Shown here piece after piece: positions 3,567-54,662 of a stretch of 64,000 nucleotides of DNA. The DNA is from an uncultured Butyrivibrio sp. Lineage in GTDB: Bacteria; Bacillota; Clostridia; Lachnospirales; Lachnospiraceae. Below the pieces are notes generated by a model that worked only from the letters and a program-made list of their open reading frames with translations, made no database searches and was not told where the DNA came from. The stretch is from assembly GCA_947167765.1 (NCBI GenBank), contig CAMVJI010000002.1, forward strand, positions 494 through 64,493, written 5' to 3'. Positions within the stretch are counted from its first letter, which is position 1; every line of letters begins with the position of its first letter. A program made the translations under genes and the position numbers.

Positions 3567-4347
3567 GGATCCGGAAGAGCTCATCGGCTCAATGAACCTT
3601 GATTGTGATGCGGTCATAGTCAACCAGATCATAGATGACAGTGATGGCGAGGCTAAAAAAGATGATAACAATGACTACATCAAGCCTTTTGACGACTATG
3701 AAGCCAGGATTATCGTAAGAAGGGAAAAGGGCGTTGGACTATCCAGAAATACTGCCCTTGAAGCTTCTGATCACGAGCTTATCCAGTTTGGCGATGATGA
3801 TATTGTCTATGACGATGGATATGCTTCTAAAGTCATAGCTGAGTTTGACGCCCATCCAGAGGCAGACATGCTTCTTTTTAATGTCAAGGCCCAGGAGGGA
3901 AGAGAGACCTATTGGAACCAGGATTTTGCCAGGGTTAACTGGCGTAATTATGGAAGATATCCTGCCTACGCCATCTGTGCAAGAAGGAACAAGCTCGTAG
4001 GAAGCGGTGTTAAGTATTCTCTCCTTTTTGGAGGCGGAGCGCCATATATGAACGGAGAGGATTCTCTGTTTTTACACGACTGCCTCAAGGCGGGACTTAA
4101 TATCTACAGGACTACTGTGGCCATTGGAAAAGAAAAGCAGGGTCAGTCCACCTGGTTTAATGGGTTTACTGACAAGTTCTTCTTTGACAGAGGTGTACTG
4201 TACCACTTTTTATATGGCAAAATGGCTGTAATACTGGGATTTCGATATCTTTTCAAGAACCGGGAAGAGATGTGCAGCGAAAAAGGACTGCTTAAGTGCT
4301 TCAGGCTCCTGACAGACGGGGTTAAGCACGGGAGTACTATTTCATGA
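3523..4347 (+). CDS. GT-A/GT2 family glycosyltransferase
   Basis: GVGLSRN, FGDDDI and GEDSLF motifs. Start moved to ATG 3523 after a GGGGAG RBS. Confidence 0.78.
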   Translation: MEQKRLQILISAVNKDPEELIGSMNLDCDAVIVNQIIDDSDGEAKKDDNNDYIKPFDDYEARIIVRREKGVGLSRNTALEASDHELIQFGDDDIVYDDGYASKVIAEFDAHPEADMLLFNVKAQEGRETYWNQDFARVNWRNYGRYPAYAICARRNKLVGSGVKYSLLFGGGAPYMNGEDSLFLHDCLKAGLNIYRTTVAIGKEKQGQSTWFNGFTDKFFFDRGVLYHFLYGKMAVILGFRYLFKNREEMCSEKGLLKCFRLLTDGVKHGSTIS

Positions 4348-44616: not shown

Positions 44617-45009
44617 ATGAAGATTCATCACGTTGGTTACCTGGCCAAAAACCTTGAAAAGTCTGCAGCCAAATTTTTGGAGCTGGGCTACGAGGTTGAA
44701 AGACCATGTAAGTACGATCCGATCCGCAAGATAAATATTGAATTCTTAAAAAACGGGGATTACAGAGTTGAACTCATTCAGCCCATGAGCGAGGAATCGC
44801 CCATGTTCCCGCTTCTTAAGAGATTTAAGAACACACCCTATCACTTCTGCTATGAGGTGGAGGATGTTGAAATAGCTGCAAAAGAGCTGTCTGAAAAAGG
44901 CTACACTGTTATTCAGGAGCCAGAGATAGCACCTTGTATCGATGACAGAAGAGTTGTTTTTATGAACAACATCAGTATGGGGATCATAGAACTTGTCGAA
45001 ACCAGATAA
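44617..45009 (+). CDS. VOC/glyoxalase superfamily protein (methylmalonyl-CoA epimerase-like)
   Basis: IHHVGY, VELIQP, YHFCYEV and IELVE metal-ligand pattern. Confidence 0.8.
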   Translation: MKIHHVGYLAKNLEKSAAKFLELGYEVERPCKYDPIRKINIEFLKNGDYRVELIQPMSEESPMFPLLKRFKNTPYHFCYEVEDVEIAAKELSEKGYTVIQEPEIAPCIDDRRVVFMNNISMGIIELVETR

Positions 45010-46210
45010 CCAGAAAAAACCGCATATTGCCATGTACATTGGATCCCTGCAAAAGGGTGGCGCTGAGAGGGTTATGAGTAATCTCTGTGACTACTTTTTT
45101 GAACAGGGCTACAGGGTTACCCTTGTGACAACATACCTGGCAGCCAATGAGTATGAGGTAAAACATGCTGCCTGGAAGAGCGTACCTGCAGGTGCAGAAA
45201 ACGCTACGCTGGTGGCTGATCTTGATGAGAACCCTGTATGGGTGGATCTTTCTGGCGGTGAGAAAAATGGTATCCAGAGAGTCTTTTCAGCTCTTCTTAA
45301 GTCTGAGCAGAAGGACAGGATCACCAATTTCAGATTAAGACATAAAAAGCTCAGGGACATATGGCGCAGTTTAAAACCAGACGTGGTCCTTAGCTTTATT
45401 GGTAAGAACAATATAATGGCTCTTTCAACAGCCACAAGAGAGGGGATCAAGGTAGTTGTTTCCGTCAGGGCAGACCCTGACTGGGAGTATTCTACTACAG
45501 CCCTGAAGGCAGGAATGCTTTCAAACTTTGGCAAGGCAGCAGGTGTTGTTGTACAGTCCAACGGAGCAAAAGAAAAATTCCCGGGCTACATTCAAAAGAA
45601 GTGCACTATTCTTCCAAACTCCATGGATCTTTCCTTTGTGAGAAAGCGCTATGTAGGTGAGCGTGAAAACACCATAGTCATGGTGGCAAGACTTCATGAG
45701 AACAAGAATCAGGGTCTTGTTATGGAGGCCTTTAAAGAGGCTACAAAAGACAGATTTAAAGATTATAAGCTCGTATTTTACGGAGACGGTCCAGACAGAC
45801 TTAAGCTTCAGCACAAGGCCACTTCCATGGGAATTGATGACAGGGTGGAGTTTAAGGGCAATGTAAAGCACGTGGCCGAGCACATAGAAAAGGCCAAGCT
45901 ATTTGTCCTTGCATCAGGCCATGAGGGAATGCCTAACTCCCTTATAGAAGCCATGTCCTTGGGACTGGCCTGCATATCAACGGACTGTCCCTGCGGAGGA
46001 CCAAGGGACCTTATCACAGATGGTGTGAATGGACTTCTGGTTCCTGTAGGCGATGTTAAGGCATTGACTAATGCTATGGTAAAGGTACTTGAAGATGAGG
46101 ACTTTGCTAACAAGCTTGGCAGTGCAGCAACAAGCGTCCAGAAAAGATTTGCTCCTGACATTGCCAATGCTATGTGGAAGGAATATTTCGACAAGATAAT
46201 AAGACAGTAA
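44993..46210 (+). CDS. GT4 glycosyltransferase (paralog of 40488-41597)
   Basis: GGAERV and EGMPNSLIEAMSLG..TDCPCGGP motifs. TTG start overlaps the VOC gene. Confidence 0.85.
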   Translation: MSKPDNQKKPHIAMYIGSLQKGGAERVMSNLCDYFFEQGYRVTLVTTYLAANEYEVKHAAWKSVPAGAENATLVADLDENPVWVDLSGGEKNGIQRVFSALLKSEQKDRITNFRLRHKKLRDIWRSLKPDVVLSFIGKNNIMALSTATREGIKVVVSVRADPDWEYSTTALKAGMLSNFGKAAGVVVQSNGAKEKFPGYIQKKCTILPNSMDLSFVRKRYVGERENTIVMVARLHENKNQGLVMEAFKEATKDRFKDYKLVFYGDGPDRLKLQHKATSMGIDDRVEFKGNVKHVAEHIEKAKLFVLASGHEGMPNSLIEAMSLGLACISTDCPCGGPRDLITDGVNGLLVPVGDVKALTNAMVKVLEDEDFANKLGSAATSVQKRFAPDIANAMWKEYFDKIIRQ

Positions 46211-46229: not shown

Positions 46230-46256
46230 AAAACCTCGGCGCTCTGCCGAGGTTTT
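46230..46256. terminator. Bidirectional intrinsic terminator
   Basis: AAAACCTCGGC-GCTCT-GCCGAGGTTTT, a perfect 11-bp stem 20 nt after the stop at 46210. Confidence 0.85.
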
Positions 46257-46278
46257 AGTATATCTACTGAGTGGGGGA

Positions 46279-46514
46279 ATCCACAGCCGCTTCTTGAATT
46301 ATAAGCCTTGTGGAATGAATATCAATAGCCTTTCGCGGCATATCCTCGTTGAAGGTGAGTCAGTGGGGACGTTACAGTTTGACTCACTGGGGAGCTGTGA
46401 GTCAAACTGTAACGTCCCCACTGACTCACCTCCAACTGCGGTATTCCACGGTGCTATTGACATTCATCCCACAAGACTTTTTTGGTGATCAAGCGGCCAT
46501 GGATGGGGACGCTA
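46279..46514 (-). other. Hairpin A: ssoA/Frpo-like single-strand origin or ssDNA promoter candidate (alternatively a structured ncRNA)
   Basis: 226-nt rod (46279-46504) whose helical mismatches are G.T on the minus strand. The 3' arm has GATATGCCGCGAAA (46331-46344), TTGATA (46320-46325), 16 nt, then unpaired TATAAT (46298-46303). TAGCGT lies at 46509-46514. Confidence 0.65.
46353..46431. repeat. Perfect 35-bp inverted repeat (REP-like doublet) forming the apex of hairpin A
   Basis: AGGTGAGTCAGTGGGGACGTTACAGTTTGACTCAC (46353-46387), a 9-nt loop, then the exact reverse complement (46397-46431). Each arm has its own GTGAGTCA/TGACTCAC stem. Confidence 0.9.
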
Positions 46515-46547
46515 TTCCGCACCATCGTGTTCGCTGTGACGTTAATT

Positions 46548-46814
46548 TAATACCCCTGACCACTTTGGACTCGTAGGTATTATGGCTTTTAAAAAATAGC
46601 GCTTTTTATTTTAATAAAGATAATACCCAAGGCTATCTTACAACTGTCAGGTATTAAAAACTGAATGTGGTTTGATAAAAACTTGCATAAATTGCAGAGG
46701 AAAGGTCATACCAATAGCCACTAACTGTTATTGTGGTATTAAAAGCGCCTAAAATATTTATTTAAAGCAAGAAATCCATAAGACCAGCCATTAGTAATTC
46801 GTGAAGTGGTATTA
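46548..46814. repeat. Array of four 35-36 bp palindromic units TAATACC-N21/22-GGTATTA
   Basis: Units at 46548-46582, 46621-46656, 46706-46741 (TCATACC) and 46779-46814 (TAAGACC). Start spacing is 73, 85 and 73 nt, with AT-rich linkers. Confidence 0.75.
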
Positions 46815-47069
46815 GGTAGCTCATAATAGGGGGCAATCATCAAATCTTAAACAGCTCTGGGACAAGAATACTAGGGCAAGTCCGTAATGAGATTCGATAA
46901 CGGTTGATATTGCCCCAAATACTACGGACTAGAAGAAGGGAAAATGCTATACAGTCTGAATTTCACAAATAACGCCATCCTATTGGCATAATACCGAACA
47001 CCACAAAATGACGGCCCCAGATATGCCAAAAATCCCCGCTGGTAGCCAGCGCTCTTCATGCCACTCCCT

Positions 47070-47259
47070 GTTCATCCCCCGTTTGATTACCCAAAAACGT
47101 CCACCGGAAATCGGTCAAGTGGACCATGGAATACCGCAGCAGATACGGATGGTGGGATCAGCTGAATTGCTGAAAACACCTAGTATCTGCGAGGATATGC
47201 CGTGAAAGCTACTTGGGCGATTTACGGTGGACGTTATAATTCAAAGAGCGGGGATGAAC
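47070..47259 (+). other. Hairpin B: second ssoA/Frpo-like element, homologous to hairpin A, on the opposite strand
   Basis: 190-nt rod closed by GTTCATCCCC/GGGGATGAAC. The 3' arm has GATATGCCGTGAAA (47194-47207), TTGGGC (47213-47218, opposite GGTCAA), 16 nt, then unpaired TATAAT (47235-47240). Confidence 0.65.
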
Positions 47260-47264
47260 CCATA

Positions 47265-49058
47265 TTATCTTACTGATACCTTGATATGGCTGTTCTTGTT
47301 CTTGTAGTCGCTACTGATCTCCAGCTTGTAGGTGGCATTGCCATCGGCGTCTTCAGACACTTTTTCAAAGCCCTGAAGGGTGTAGAAATCTTTTACCATC
47401 TTGTTCTTGGCAGTAGGATAGTAGTAGCCATAGATGGTTTTAATGCCCTTTTCAAGGGCTTTTTCGTGAAGTGCATCCATCATTGCAAATTCCATATCTC
47501 TTTTAAGAACGCGGCAGCTCATGAGCCACAGGTCGATGTGGAGCTCGTCGCCTTTTATGCTTCCGGCAATGAGAGATACGATACCATTATCGCCAAACTT
47601 ATCTGATAGGCGCCCATAAAGTGTTATGCACTTTGGATCATTGGCCGTTTTTTCAATGTCATCGGGGCTGTAGCGTTTGGTGGTCAAATTGAACTGATTA
47701 CTCTTGTTGGTGAGCTGGGCTATCCTTGGAATATAGAGCTTTTCAAAAGGAGCAATCTCAGCCTCCATATCAAGGGAAGTGAGGTACTCTCCGTAATCAG
47801 CAAAGCTCTCCTCAGCTTCAGTGCGCTTTTTGTTGGCAATGTACATTTCGTTTCTTTTCCTGTCATCCTCAGATACAGAGGTGGCTTCAAAGAAACCTGA
47901 GTGATCAAGGATCCTTATGTAGTGCTCAGGAGTGTCTATTTCTGGGACTGCAGCCCCCTTTACCTGTCCTTCGATGATGGCTCTTTCTGCAGGATTGTCA
48001 TCTACAAATACCAGGGAATCAGGTAGTATGTTCAGCTCTTTGGCAATTGACTTAAGGTTCTCGCTCTTTGGATCCCAATTAGCTCTTATGGCCACAAAGT
48101 CGTCGGGCTTAAGGATTCCATCTGGGTGAGAAAGGCCTGCCATGGCATTTTCTTCCTCGTTCTTGGAATCAACGGTTAAAAGGACACCGATGTCCTTTTG
48201 CATTTTTACATAGTGCTGGAACTCTGCGTACACCTGACCAAGGTTGGTTTCCTGACCAATCTCAATCCCGTCAACGCCATCGTCTCCAATGACGCCTCCC
48301 CAAAGAGTATTATCAAGATCAAGTACAAGACCCTTTTTGTTCCTGCCATAGATTGACTTGATAATGTTGGCTACGCTGAAGCTAAGGGTTGGGATTGCTG
48401 GGATGCACAGGGCGTATTTGTACATGTGCCAGGTAAGTGGATCAGACCACTCATCAAGGCCATAGCAGCTTGAAAGGTAGTTTATATCGTTGATAAAAAA
48501 GCTTGTAGAGTTATCAGAAGCCTGCCTTGCAAACTGAGCAAATTTCTCATTTAATCTGTTTATGAACGATACTCTTCCGTGGACATCGTAGAAGTCACGG
48601 TTTCCCATAAGCCTGTAAAAGGGAGCTTCAAAATTGTTCTGGATAACAGGGCAGTGATAAGTCTCTATCAGTTTTTTCCACATGGTCTCAAAGTGCTGGT
48701 AAGTCTTATCAAGCTTATCCTCAACAGTAGCAGCATCGTCGTCCATTGTGGGATAGTCTGTAATGTTGCGGTTACTTGTGTGTATAAAGATCACATCAGG
48801 AGAAAATGAAGAAAGCTCCTCTCCAAACATGGCATCCTGCCAGTACTGTCCATATTCTGATTCATAGAATTCTGGTTCAATACCGTAGTTTAATAGAAAA
48901 AGCTCCATAACCTTTATGATATCGTGAGTGGTTGAACCTCCAAGAACCGCGATCTTCTTGTGAATGCGCTGGCTACCATCAGCTAAAAGAGCTTTCTTTA
49001 TGCTCTTTTTCTTTTTCATAATGTAGTTGCTATCAAAAGGATATTCTAGTTCTTTCAT
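47265..49058 (-). CDS. FkbH-like HAD-IIIC protein (glyceryl-ACP synthase family)
   Basis: LVLDLDNTLWGG, SKN, ANWDPKS, VFVDDNPAE, QLTNKSNQFNLT, DKFGDNG and WLMSCRVL motifs, plus an extra N-terminal domain. Confidence 0.88.
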   Translation of the reverse strand: MKELEYPFDSNYIMKKKKSIKKALLADGSQRIHKKIAVLGGSTTHDIIKVMELFLLNYGIEPEFYESEYGQYWQDAMFGEELSSFSPDVIFIHTSNRNITDYPTMDDDAATVEDKLDKTYQHFETMWKKLIETYHCPVIQNNFEAPFYRLMGNRDFYDVHGRVSFINRLNEKFAQFARQASDNSTSFFINDINYLSSCYGLDEWSDPLTWHMYKYALCIPAIPTLSFSVANIIKSIYGRNKKGLVLDLDNTLWGGVIGDDGVDGIEIGQETNLGQVYAEFQHYVKMQKDIGVLLTVDSKNEEENAMAGLSHPDGILKPDDFVAIRANWDPKSENLKSIAKELNILPDSLVFVDDNPAERAIIEGQVKGAAVPEIDTPEHYIRILDHSGFFEATSVSEDDRKRNEMYIANKKRTEAEESFADYGEYLTSLDMEAEIAPFEKLYIPRIAQLTNKSNQFNLTTKRYSPDDIEKTANDPKCITLYGRLSDKFGDNGIVSLIAGSIKGDELHIDLWLMSCRVLKRDMEFAMMDALHEKALEKGIKTIYGYYYPTAKNKMVKDFYTLQGFEKVSEDADGNATYKLEISSDYKNKNSHIKVSVR

Positions 49059-53756: not shown

Positions 53757-53789
53757 TTCATATGTATATGCAATTTTGTCGGAGGGGAT

Positions 53790-54662
53790 ATGATAATAAT
53801 CCAGCTCAAGGGCGGACTGGGAAACCAGATGTTCCAGTATGCTCTTTACAGAGAATTACTTCATAGAGGAAAACAGGTCAAGATCGACGACGTAACGGGA
53901 TTTGAGAATGATAAGTTAAGGAAGCCTGTTTTGGATCGTTTTGGAATAGAGTATGAGAGGGCAACACCTGAAGAGGTAGTGGCCATCACTGATTCCAAAA
54001 TGGATATTTTTAGCCGTATAAGGCGTAAACTGACAGGCCGTAAGACCCACAGGATAGATGAGACTGAAGGTATCTTTGATCCCAAGATTTTAGAAGTTGA
54101 TGAAGCGTATCTGGTTGGCTACTGGCAGTCAGACAAGTACTTCACTTCACCAGAAGTTATCGAACATCTTCAGGAGACCTTTGCAAAGAGACCTCAGGAG
54201 ATAATGCATGACTCAGTCAGCTGGACTACCCTGCAGCAGATCGAGTGCAGCGAGTCTGTAAGTATTCACGTTAGACGTACAGATTATCTGGACGAAGAGC
54301 ACATCAAGATCCACAACCTGTGCTCAGCAAAATATTATAAAGACGCTATCAGCATGGTTAGGGAGAAGCATCCCAACGCTGTGTTCTTCATCTTTACCGA
54401 TGACAAAGAGTGGTGCAAGGAGCACTTTAAAGGTCATAATTTCATTAACGTAGAACTCCAGGAGGGCGAATTTACTGATGTTGCAGATATGCTCTTAATG
54501 AGCAGATGCAAGCACCACATTATAGCCAACAGCTCCTTTAGCTGGTGGTCAGCGTGGATCGGGGATTCTCCGGAGAAAATGGTCATCGCTCCAGCAAAGT
54601 GGATCAACAACAAAAAGATGGATGACATCTATACAGAGCGTATGACAAAGGTGGCAATTTAA
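53790..54662 (+). CDS. GT11 alpha-1,2-fucosyltransferase
   Basis: GGLGNQMFQY, GYWQSDKYF, IHVRRTDY, FTDD and IIANSSFSWW motifs. Confidence 0.9.
   Translation: MIIIQLKGGLGNQMFQYALYRELLHRGKQVKIDDVTGFENDKLRKPVLDRFGIEYERATPEEVVAITDSKMDIFSRIRRKLTGRKTHRIDETEGIFDPKILEVDEAYLVGYWQSDKYFTSPEVIEHLQETFAKRPQEIMHDSVSWTTLQQIECSESVSIHVRRTDYLDEEHIKIHNLCSAKYYKDAISMVREKHPNAVFFIFTDDKEWCKEHFKGHNFINVELQEGEFTDVADMLLMSRCKHHIIANSSFSWWSAWIGDSPEKMVIAPAKWINNKKMDDIYTERMTKVAI

Follow-up and report, generated by a model that had tools for sequence, protein, structure and literature searches.

We find that positions 46257 to 47261 of the window (the whole stretch of 64,000 nucleotides that was analysed; all coordinates are positions within it) are, judging from an empty site and homologous units elsewhere, one copy of a MITE of the IS1182 type, about 1 kb long, without genes and non-autonomous. 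Its non-coding cargo consists of two diverged hairpin modules of about 190 nt each, an A-type and a B-type, set in inverted orientation around a repeat-rich interior. The preliminary description had reported the hairpin pair with "no mobile element present"; on the contrary, the pair itself makes up the ends of a multi-copy, insertion-polymorphic element. On balance, we favor the view that each strand bears, near its 3′ end, one hairpin that probably acts strand-specifically as a ssDNA promoter or priming site. The element copy at 46257 to 47261 is called the window copy below, and it and its surroundings are laid out as follows.

44993 to 46210, plus strand: GT4 glycosyltransferase gene, left flank, outside the element (Pfam Glycos_transf_1, 2.4e-38)
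46230 to 46256: bidirectional intrinsic terminator of the glycosyltransferase gene, the target structure (terminator scan; also at the empty site of genome G031)
46257 to 47261: the whole inserted element, about 1005 bp, non-coding, assigned as a non-autonomous IS1182-type MITE (empty site and homologous units)
46258 to 46270, plus strand: left copy of the likely target-site duplication, GTATATCTACTGA (compared with the right copy and with the single copy at the G031 empty site)
46279 to 46504, minus strand: hairpin A, the A-type end module, 5′ arm toward the interior (RNA fold; covariance model R1, 164.5 bits)
46505 to 47069: non-coding interior, 65-80% identical between copies
47070 to 47259, plus strand: hairpin B, the B-type end module, 5′ arm toward the interior (RNA and DNA folds; covariance model R1, 194.2 bits)
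47261 to 47276, plus strand: right copy of the likely target-site duplication, CATATTATCTTACTGA, overlapping the stop codon of the neighbouring gene
47265 to 49058, minus strand: FkbH-like gene, right flank, outside the element (Pfam FkbH_N, 5e-06)

The window copy resides in the chromosome, where convergent glycan genes flank it and no gene lies downstream, and it was inserted directly 3′ of the T-tract of the glycosyltransferase terminator. The sister genome G031 (C1) has an empty site, where flanks 83-86% identical to those of the window meet with an 8-bp gap. The sequences at 46258 to 46270 and 47261 to 47276 are tentatively read as a target-site duplication in imperfect copies. Examining the interior, we found no conserved ORF; it contains small hairpins in arrays, their stems being fixed (TAATACC-N20-GGTATTA), and long copies show alternating TTACGGACT and AGTCCGTAA. 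A reverse match between two short copies had first suggested that the interior was inverted; this was rejected because those interiors are themselves palindromic.

We detected 15 hairpins in this genome, namely seven pairs and one at a contig end, with further copies at contig breaks. The element thus occupies at least eight loci here, the window copy and homologous units at seven further loci, and it is carried by 12 of the 88 Butyrivibrio genomes; Butyrivibrio sp. CB08 is an isolate that has it. Empty sites are known for the window copy and for the C23 and C58 copies, and copies in relatives correspond to empty sites in this genome. Decayed copies with the interior alone also exist. The whole unit, used as a BLAST query, had no match among plasmids or phages.

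The assignment to IS1182 comes from the ends and the targets. Many copies have terminal repeats (CAGAYTGTAGACAAAGTA) on the outer side of the hairpins, as does the divergent G027 family; those of the window copy are degenerate only. The same repeats are found at the borders of IS1182-family transposase genes (NF033551, scores of 453 and 360 bits, cut-off 270) and of full 1649-bp ISs in Butyrivibrio. Terminator stem-loops are duplicated whole, over 22-28 bp around the MITE and 35 bp around the full IS. Stem-loop targeting has been reported for IS1272, an IS1182-family member (PMC5678879), and the duplications around both MITE and IS match this type of targeting. It shares identical 18-bp terminal inverted repeats and insertion at stem-loops or terminators with the IS1182-family ISs and MITEs/MICs (e.g. 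IS1272). In contrast to the autonomous IS1182 copies examined, it has no transposase, and its cargo is the pair of hairpin modules with the repeat-rich interior. Most likely, an IS1182-family transposase supplied in trans moved it. Such a transposase is present in 40 of the 88 genus genomes and in 4-5 of the 12 carriers, and it was not found in this 79%-complete assembly. Among the 80 metagenome loci and the genus copies examined, no autonomous IS1182 copy had the hairpins; thus, the hairpins are cargo and not a requirement for transposition. An IS6-like transposase was rejected as the mobiliser since its distribution in the genus does not track the element. A group II intron, IS200/IS605, HUH-type ends, an integron attC and a rolling-circle dso in the interior were set aside in view of the true inverted-repeat ends and target duplications, and no such family was matched.

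The hairpins carry the following features, given by position.

46298 to 46325, minus strand: TTGATA-N16-TATAAT in the 3′ arm of A, 11/12 match, −35 in duplex and −10 in the bubble, reading outward in dsDNA
46330 to 46347, minus strand: 3′-arm box of A, GAGGATATGCCGCGAAAG, RS_B-like, invariant in the 15 own-genome copies and in distant families
46349 to 46435: nested independent palindromic repeat replacing the apical stem-loop of A (comparison with other copies)
46436 to 46447, minus strand: 5′-arm box of A, GGAATACCGCAG, pairing with the RS_B-like box, invariant
47128 to 47139, plus strand: 5′-arm box of B, GGAATACCGCAG (sequence comparison)
47191 to 47208, plus strand: 3′-arm box of B, GAGGATATGCCGTGAAAG, RS_B-like (sequence comparison)
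47213 to 47240, plus strand: TTGGGC-N16-TATAAT in the 3′ arm of B, −10 in the bubble (sequence and folds)

Both hairpins, A on the minus and B on the plus strand, are present with arms that align without gaps, just as the preliminary description had it. Folded as RNA, hairpin A reaches -158.5 kcal/mol (z -17) and hairpin B -100.2 kcal/mol (z -8.7), far better than shuffles. The DNA fold of hairpin B gives -52.6 kcal/mol on its own strand versus -43.1 on the opposite strand. In A and B alike, the TATAAT falls within an 11x12-nt internal loop and the −35-like hexamer (TTGAnn) lies in duplex, so the earlier reading of a bubble at the one and a paired stretch at the other holds for both folds. An imperfect duplex, in which GGAATA..CCG pairs with GGA..TATGCCGyGAAAG, is invariant, and TTG and TAnAAT (TAyAAT) are conserved across element families. 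Each module folds only on the strand where it sits near that strand's 3′ end. One argument had to be dropped: the fully paired (25/25) central stem of hairpin A, offered before as covariation, is the nested palindrome at 46349 to 46435. This palindrome is missing from other A-type copies, and the DNA contigs of those copies skip it. It stands alone at another locus of the sister genome G031 (C30), and its arm recurs on four other contigs (C52, C297, C28 and C163). The apices of A-type hairpins are recipients of nested palindromic repeats.

Aligning 37 copies, we checked whether the pairing is maintained. Paired cells amount to 97.3%, as compared with 30-39% for slid controls in the same test; double changes are seen in 28 of 50 pairs, and none of 500 shuffles reaches the observed values. 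The compensatory change from G-C to A-T in the conserved box, noticed earlier between the two hairpins, is borne out, with 19 copies of the one state versus 18 of the other. In the G027 family, a 2-nt insertion of AA in one box is compensated by TT in the other. The proposed strand-specificity of the wobbles also stands as a bias: on the called strand there are 118 G.T versus 24 A.C, or 81 versus 24 after leaving out one invariant pair. Such a G.U-type bias fits RNA equally well as ssDNA. Between orthologous loci, identity is 93-98% in the hairpins, 88-92% in the interior and 92-97% in the coding flanks.

We also searched plasmids using a covariance model built from the Butyrivibrio copies alone. 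The F plasmid gave a match at about 54.0 kb (60.6 bits, E 1.4e-12), on the template (transferred) strand and about 100 nt upstream of a leading-region methylase gene. A 2.6-kb Rep+MobV plasmid matched with 56 bits, and a Pseudomonas conjugative plasmid with 45 bits upstream of a DUF932 gene. By this model, the core is homologous to transferred-strand hairpins of the F leading region and to hairpins of small Rep/Mob plasmids. Over the 16 kb of F leading region covered by the search, the match at 54.0 kb was the only one; none fell at Frpo1 or Frpo2 (ssiD, ssiE), as placed by their map positions. Frpo1 and Frpo2 map upstream of ygeA and ssb (PMC9849209), and a ssDNA promoter upstream of leading-region methylase genes has been described (PMC7736820). 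BLAST located the core on 2082 plasmids, of which 1595 are conjugative and 311 mobilizable (together 92%), and its polarity there fits downstream early genes. What the covariance model picks up is a hairpin family, apparently without a name so far, that lies upstream of leading-region genes on over 2000 plasmids, F among them. An IS6-like IS also carries the core, with the module on the sense strand directly 3′ of the transposase stop codon. The RS_B-like box, the 16-nt spacing and the TATAAT had been expected to persist in homologues. The box is indeed invariant and TTG/TAnAAT is kept across families, but the compact versions in the IS6-like IS, F and the small plasmid have no recognisable −10 at the right spacing. 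Thus, the "promoter" reading rests mainly on the long form of Butyrivibrio.

The box had originally been likened to RS_B of ssoA origins. That comparison agrees with the RS_B sequence TTTATGCCGAGAAAA (PMC6395029), and we found RS_B in pT181; according to one report, RNA polymerase needs RS_B in order to bind ssos (PMC8860593). Compared with ssoA (pT181 palA, pMV158 ssoA), the element matches the RS_B core TATGCCGnGAAA at 11/12 positions (TATGCCGyGAAA), and the G027 family matches as ATTTATGCCGnGAAA at 14/15. The partner strand TGGAATA(AA), an A/G mismatch, a bulged A and the adjacent TATTG(A/G)/CAATA helix are likewise shared. In contrast, RS_B is apex-proximal on the 3′ arm here, whereas it is loop-distal, at the base of the 5′ arm, in pT181 and five other ssoAs, which amounts to a circular permutation; ssoA origins are transcribed toward the loop. 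CS-6 (TAGCGA/T) was found in the terminal loop of 0/37 copies, and the element has no Rep or dso and no ORF inside. The similarity spans about 25 nt in this permuted form. When ssoA-derived nhmmer profiles were run against this genome, the element copies were not among the top matches, and BLAST likewise retrieved none; thus, the likeness to ssoA is at motif level only. Judged by CS-6, topology and the missing Rep/dso, the element is not an ssoA member.

We picture the probable ssDNA promoter or priming function as follows. The fold would set TTGAyA in duplex and TAyAAT, 16 nt downstream, in the conserved bubble, with the invariant duplex adjoining. When the DNA becomes single-stranded, the host sigma-A RNA polymerase would take the folded module as a pre-opened promoter, and it would transcribe or prime along the 5′ arm into the element; on single-stranded hairpin A, the 5′ arm would serve as the template and synthesis would run inward. 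The outcome may be a ssDNA promoter or a primer for complementary-strand synthesis. As each strand has its own module, the cassette should function whatever its orientation and whichever strand is exposed. The hairpin structure would be ironed out on return to duplex DNA. Of the earlier proposal of single-strand initiation, this much gains support from the core homologues on the F transferred strand, on Rep/Mob plasmids and on the 2082 plasmids; its framing as a lone pair, its central-stem argument and its ssoA membership do not survive. Against the reading, no regular phase in which the chromosomal copies are single-stranded is obvious, and a DDE transposase needs no ssDNA stage; the hairpin-free autonomous IS1182 copies, the missing −10 of the compact versions, the short and permuted ssoA similarity and the wobble bias that suits RNA too also weigh against it.

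Among the closest known parallels is the Frpo/ssi class of leading-region ssDNA promoters (Masai & Arai 1997, as cited in PMC11541004, PMC9849209 and PMC7736820). Like these, the modules are long strand-specific hairpins with the −35 in duplex and the −10 imperfectly paired, and a core homologue sits on the F T-strand upstream of a leading-region methylase gene. In Frpo/ssi, the host RNA polymerase reads ssDNA only, and the transcript runs 5′-ward along the folded template; by analogy, the same may apply to the element. The hairpins here differ in being chromosomal, inside a MITE and arranged as an inverted pair, with a non-coding interior instead of a downstream gene. Accordingly placed sites, on a transferred strand upstream of early genes, are seen for the core homologues in F and the Pseudomonas plasmid but not for the window copy.

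MITEs with outward promoters are well established. The Correia (CREE) elements of Neisseria are multi-copy intergenic MITEs of 100-155 bp that have promoter hexamers at their ends and can form hairpins when transcribed, the hairpin being made by both TIRs together. The present element resembles them in its multi-copy intergenic nature, end promoter hexamers and hairpin potential; it differs in having a 190-nt hairpin at each end, conserved internal loops and a core with plasmid homologues. We weighed whether the modules are ordinary outward sigma-A promoters of dsDNA at both MITE ends, with the upstream complementary arm incidental or acting through cruciform extrusion or a DNA-binding protein. 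The outward-reading TTGATA-16-TATAAT, matching at 11/12, and the conservation of TTG and TAyAAT across families agree with this. However, it leaves unexplained the strand-biased wobble (118:24), the conserved non-promoter side of the bubble and the compensatory changes along 50 pairs; its transcripts would meet the flanking terminator copies at once, and the homologues in F and small plasmids have no −10. We thus regard dsDNA promoter activity as an unlikely explanation of the hairpins.

Another view is that the hairpins work at the RNA level. Transcription would run outward from interior promoters or, in the case of the IS6-like IS, the hairpin would form the 3′ UTR of the transposase mRNA; the RNA might decoy the polymerase in a 6S-like manner, regulate in antisense or lend stability as a structure. 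The G.U-type wobble bias, the very stable RNA fold, the sense-strand placement of the IS6-like module immediately behind the transposase stop codon and weak interior promoter-like sites aimed at each hairpin are all in line with such a role. However, the interior sites are no commoner than in shuffles, RNA has no need of DNA-level −35/−10 hexamers at 16-nt spacing, and the homologues occur at known places of ssDNA signals, i.e. plasmid leading regions and next to rep. The 6S-like RNA, formerly the main alternative, shares with the element a long hairpin with a promoter-like bubble; the element differs in being multi-copy and mobile, in its DNA-type −35/−10 hexamers and in its homologues in plasmid ssDNA contexts. 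Scanning Rfam, 6S included, we obtained nothing relevant at the gathering threshold on the window, at E<=10 on the region or at the gathering threshold on the seven further loci. Contigs from RNA libraries span the flanks and have thin coverage over the interior, but being assembled contigs they are uninformative on strand, ends and level, and the libraries possibly contain DNA. Taken together, we give an RNA role little credence.

It is similarly improbable, in our estimation, that the hairpins have no present chromosomal function and are plasmid or IS relics trapped between two IS1182 ends, or that they are large stem-loops serving transposition. IS1182-family transposases do target stem-loops, A-type apices receive nested palindromic repeats, decayed interior-only copies exist and the IS1182 transposase was not found in this assembly. 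Against this, the boxes and pairing are conserved over the deep divergence from Butyrivibrio families to the F plasmid, conservation of the hairpins between orthologous loci equals that of the coding flanks, and autonomous ISs transpose without hairpins.

Returning to the preferred ssDNA reading, a wider extension of it is possible, though we hold it to be doubtful: the element may be a portable, orientation-independent "second-strand cassette" with nothing else as cargo than a ssDNA promoter or priming hairpin for each strand, dependent on RNA polymerase, and its core, as seen in F-type leading regions, small Rep/Mob plasmids, the IS6-like IS and, permuted, ssoA, may be one ancient polymerase-recognition module for ssDNA that ISs spread across phyla. 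If so, any landing site (chromosome, plasmid or ICE) would be primed or transcribed on whichever strand becomes single-stranded during conjugation, transformation or strand-displacement replication. Plasmids, phages and ICEs are known to contain single-strand origins and ssDNA promoters as fixed components; in the present case they would be the cargo of a MITE and an IS, scattered in chromosomes. A functional element would offer a route by which second-strand priming and early-expression signals pass between replicons, and it would join three separate literatures, on ssoA RS_B, on leading-region ssDNA promoters and on MITEs. Should the chromosomal copies be inert, they would still illustrate cleanly how IS1182 targets stem-loops and how MITEs of rumen bacteria carry cargo. 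In addition, the copies lying at contig ends indicate that the element breaks Butyrivibrio assemblies.

Long hairpins are predicted at window positions 46279-46504 on the minus strand (hairpin A) and 47070-47259 on the plus strand (hairpin B). Their RNA folding energies were -158.5 and -100.2 kcal/mol (z-scores of -17 and -8.7), respectively. With DNA parameters, hairpin B reached -52.6 kcal/mol on its own strand versus -43.1 kcal/mol on the opposite strand. The two hairpins align arm for arm and are built of the following parts:

Closing stem, then an 11 × 12-nt bubble: hairpins A and B, with TATAAT on the 3′ side of the bubble
Long stem above the bubble: TTGATA in A and TTGGGC in B, 16 nt upstream of TATAAT
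Conserved imperfect duplex: hairpins A and B, GGAATACCGCAG versus GAGGATATGCCGyGAAAG
Variable apex: hairpins A and B, beyond the conserved imperfect duplex

Of the 12 A-type hexamer positions, 11 agree with the sigma-70 consensus. An Rfam search returned no family matching the hairpins.

The window's own genome is a Butyrivibrio assembly of 2.95 Mb in 310 contigs (79% complete). The invariant boxes occur in it 15 times, forming seven pairs and one hairpin at a contig end. Within each pair, an A-type and a B-type hairpin are inverted relative to each other and enclose a non-coding interior of 280-920 bp that is 65-80% identical among copies. The long interiors contain three TAATACC-N20-GGTATTA hairpins together with five TTACGGACT/AGTCCGTAA motifs in alternation. 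Some decayed copies have kept nothing but the interior. In reference genomes, matches to the exact pattern came chiefly from Butyrivibrio records, the isolates CB08 and MC2021 among them. Of 88 genomes in the genus, 12 contain the hairpin according to a covariance model (R1) trained on 14 copies from the own genome; the matches are mostly pairs 330-1050 bp apart, with single matches only in some genomes. Sequences flanking the copies of relatives fall at contig ends of the window's genome (C103/C109, C45:16-610, C168:1-341 and the end of C49), so the element has probably broken the assembly and the real copy number probably exceeds the eight loci seen. Two contigs with other element copies also carry a Clostridiales-1 RNA (L005:878-1026, minus strand, 91 bits) and a T-box leader (L006:3911-4155, plus strand, 119 bits), neither adjoining the element.

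In a sister genome (G031), the sequences flanking the window copy (83-86% identical) are separated by 8 bp, which defines the insertion as window 46257-47261. The insertion point lies directly 3′ of the T-tract of a glycosyltransferase terminator. Relatives also have empty sites for the copies on contigs C23 and C58, and the window's genome has reciprocal empty sites for relatives' copies. In many copies, an inverted terminal sequence, CAGAYTGTAGACAAAGTA, stands 8-25 nt outside each hairpin; the window copy has only degenerate remains of it and an imperfect direct repeat of ~15 bp. At several filled sites the whole terminator stem-loop is duplicated (22-28 bp), and one site shows no duplication. 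Stem-loop targeting has been reported for IS1272, a member of the IS1182 family, with a model in which the whole stem-loop is either duplicated or replaced (PMC5678879); this model accounts for the variable outcome here. Scanning metagenomes for the terminal sequence, we found at least 119 loci, many at contig ends. Transposases encoded by 1.6-1.7-kb units running between terminal inverted repeats at these loci reach 453 and 360 bits against NCBIfam IS1182 (cut-off, 270 bits). Complete copies of 1649 bp bounded by these ends are present in Butyrivibrio, and a 35-bp terminator duplication surrounds one of them; no IS1182 transposase was found in the 79% complete own assembly. From the terminal repeats common with the IS1182 transposase units, the empty sites and the stem-loop duplications, we conclude that the element is a non-autonomous IS1182-type miniature transposon (MITE), or mobile insertion cassette. 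The preliminary description had seen an orphan pair without a mobile element; the 15 boxes in the genome and the empty sites in relatives reveal a multi-copy MITE instead. A mini-MITE of ~230 bp in Butyrivibrio genome G027 (L049:3805-4036, G027:C20) has the same IS1182 terminal repeats around an unrelated interior. Cargo of several types appears to be moved in Butyrivibrio by this one transposase family.

Across 37 copies, 97.3% of cells were paired, with double changes in 28 of 50 pairs. These pairing values were attained by none of 500 shuffles, and slid controls were 30-39% paired. A single split between A-type and B-type hairpins makes up much of the covariation, and within-type changes are also present. 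The called strand has 118 G.T versus 24 A.C pairs. In a divergent family from genome G027, 2-nt insertions in both boxes (5′ box, AA; 3′ box, TT) give a helix of 5 bp instead of 3. At orthologous loci of three genomes, identity was 93-98% in the hairpins, 88-92% in the interior and 92-97% in the coding flanks. Folding, alignment and pairing thus bear out the long hairpins first described, and the hairpin structure is under selection in single-stranded form.

Compact versions of the core (65-90 nt) were found in 8 of 150 further genera in the family; the apex, the boxes and the -35 duplex are retained. One genome has five compact copies directly behind the stop codon of the gene for a DDE transposase (493 aa), within a 1930-bp IS with IS6-like ends (GGTAGTGTCAA) and 8-bp target duplications (L070:1393-3322, G211:C1; further copies in L071-L074). 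This transposase falls under every NCBIfam IS cut-off (best, IS6 at 72 bits). Fifteen of 88 Butyrivibrio genomes contain the IS, and many genomes hold only pieces spanning the first 50-95 transposase residues, which may be short derivatives. Its right end (L070:3100-3322), 3′ of the hairpin, contains several GC-rich stem-loops (GAGGACGGG..CGGGCAGAGCCCG..CAAGGGACTGGTCCCTTG..TTAGGGCAGTGCCCTAA) and is 86% identical to part of the 1.6-kb uncultured-bacterium plasmid pRGI01449 (HG796494.1; L083, 735-826). Similar sequence also lies 3′ of the hairpin in other Lachnospiraceae genera.

Performing BLAST with a compact hairpin from the genome with the IS6-like IS against 72,556 plasmids, we obtained matches in 2082 records (1595 conjugative, 311 mobilizable). 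The records were mostly from Klebsiella, Escherichia and Pseudomonas and often contained 2-4 sites each, in intergenic DNA lacking annotation. R1, built from Butyrivibrio copies only, matched plasmids as follows:

F plasmid, ~54.0 kb: template strand of leading-region genes, ~100 nt upstream of a methylase gene (60.6 bits, E 1.4e-12)
2.6-kb Rep+MobV plasmid, 56-143: ~490 nt upstream of the replication-initiator gene at 629-1207 (56 bits, E 1.7e-11)
Pseudomonas conjugative plasmid: upstream of a DUF932 gene (45 bits, E 4.5e-09)

In each conjugative plasmid match the early gene lies 5′-ward of the folded strand, which is the direction transcription would have to take were the 3′ arm to serve as the non-template strand in a folded promoter. 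The F match was the only R1 match within the 16 kb of leading region searched, and this hairpin is homologous to the Butyrivibrio core. By the published map, which places the ssDNA promoters Frpo1 and Frpo2 ahead of ygeA and ssb, it is neither of these two. The literature describes an ssDNA promoter preceding leading-region methylase genes (PMC7736820); we found no name for the F hairpin in the literature searched. It lies at L211 ~2000-2071 (NC_002483, ~54.0 kb, minus strand) and overlaps an annotated hypothetical ORF (53784-54089). The R1 matches on plasmids, an independent homology, strengthen the earlier idea of a predicted ssDNA-promoter function.

RNA polymerase binding to ssoA single-strand origins reportedly requires the RS_B box (PMC8860593), TTTATGCCGAGAAAA. 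In pT181 and five other ssoA plasmids, the partner strand of RS_B is a conserved TTGGAATAAAGC; RS_B then leads into TTATTG(G/A), which pairs with CAATAA. The Butyrivibrio duplex has in common with ssoA the strands TGGAATA(AA) versus (TT)TATGCCGyGAAA, an A/G mismatch, a bulged A and an adjoining TATTGA/TCAATA helix. Unlike in ssoA, the Butyrivibrio chain is closed at the opposite end, a circular permutation that places RS_B beside the apex on the 3′ arm. The ssoA terminal-loop motif CS-6 was found in 0 of 37 copies, and the element is not an ssoA member, a point on which the preliminary description needs correction. As a control, profiles from ssoA strands did not rank element copies in a search of the own genome; the likeness is therefore short and at motif level, and may reflect homology or convergence on a common polymerase-binding shape.

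Alongside the anatomy, mobility, single-strand selection and plasmid homologues observed, we propose as the most likely mechanism that each module, when single-stranded, would fold into a pre-opened sigma-A promoter. Polymerase would copy the 5′ arm and proceed into the element, making either a transcript or a complementary-strand primer. Like the pT181 ssoA relative to its nick site, each module sits close to the 3′ end of the strand that folds, and priming there would span nearly the whole element. With one module per strand, the cassette would be orientation-independent. Candidate single-stranded phases of a chromosomal copy are transfer, transformation, and strand displacement in transposition or repair, or such a phase may arise only once the copy has moved to a plasmid or ICE. 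It is unlikely that the hairpins are duplex outward promoters like those of Correia-type MITEs, just as improbable that they act as RNA, and there is a similarly small chance that they are inert or transposition-related stem-loops; each of these leaves the wobble bias, the DNA-type hexamers or the deep conservation unexplained.

At 46349-46435, the apex of hairpin A holds a nested, separate palindromic repeat, and this is the 25-bp central stem described earlier. It is absent from other A-type copies, and contigs of other copies skip it. The earlier argument from central-stem covariation therefore fails, as part of the covariation cited is this nested repeat. The repeat (~75-85 bp, arms GAGTCAGTGGGGACGTTACAGTTTGACTCA) stands alone at a different intergenic locus of the sister genome (L040, G031:C30). 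Single arms occur on four further contigs of the window's genome (C52:11838-11871, C297:511-543, C28:7570-7602 and C163:728-747). The palindrome appears to represent a second family of repeats, REP-like or MITE-like. On C160 and C49, the apex of the A-type hairpin contains a 33-38-nt piece (C160: L005, ~3790-3830) that is 94-97% identical to C21:23305-23338, C26:18126-18161, C62:10031-10063, C70:11099-11130 and C97:4912-4949 of the same genome. As this piece is shared with five other contigs, hairpin apices seem to be recurrent landing sites for other small repeats.
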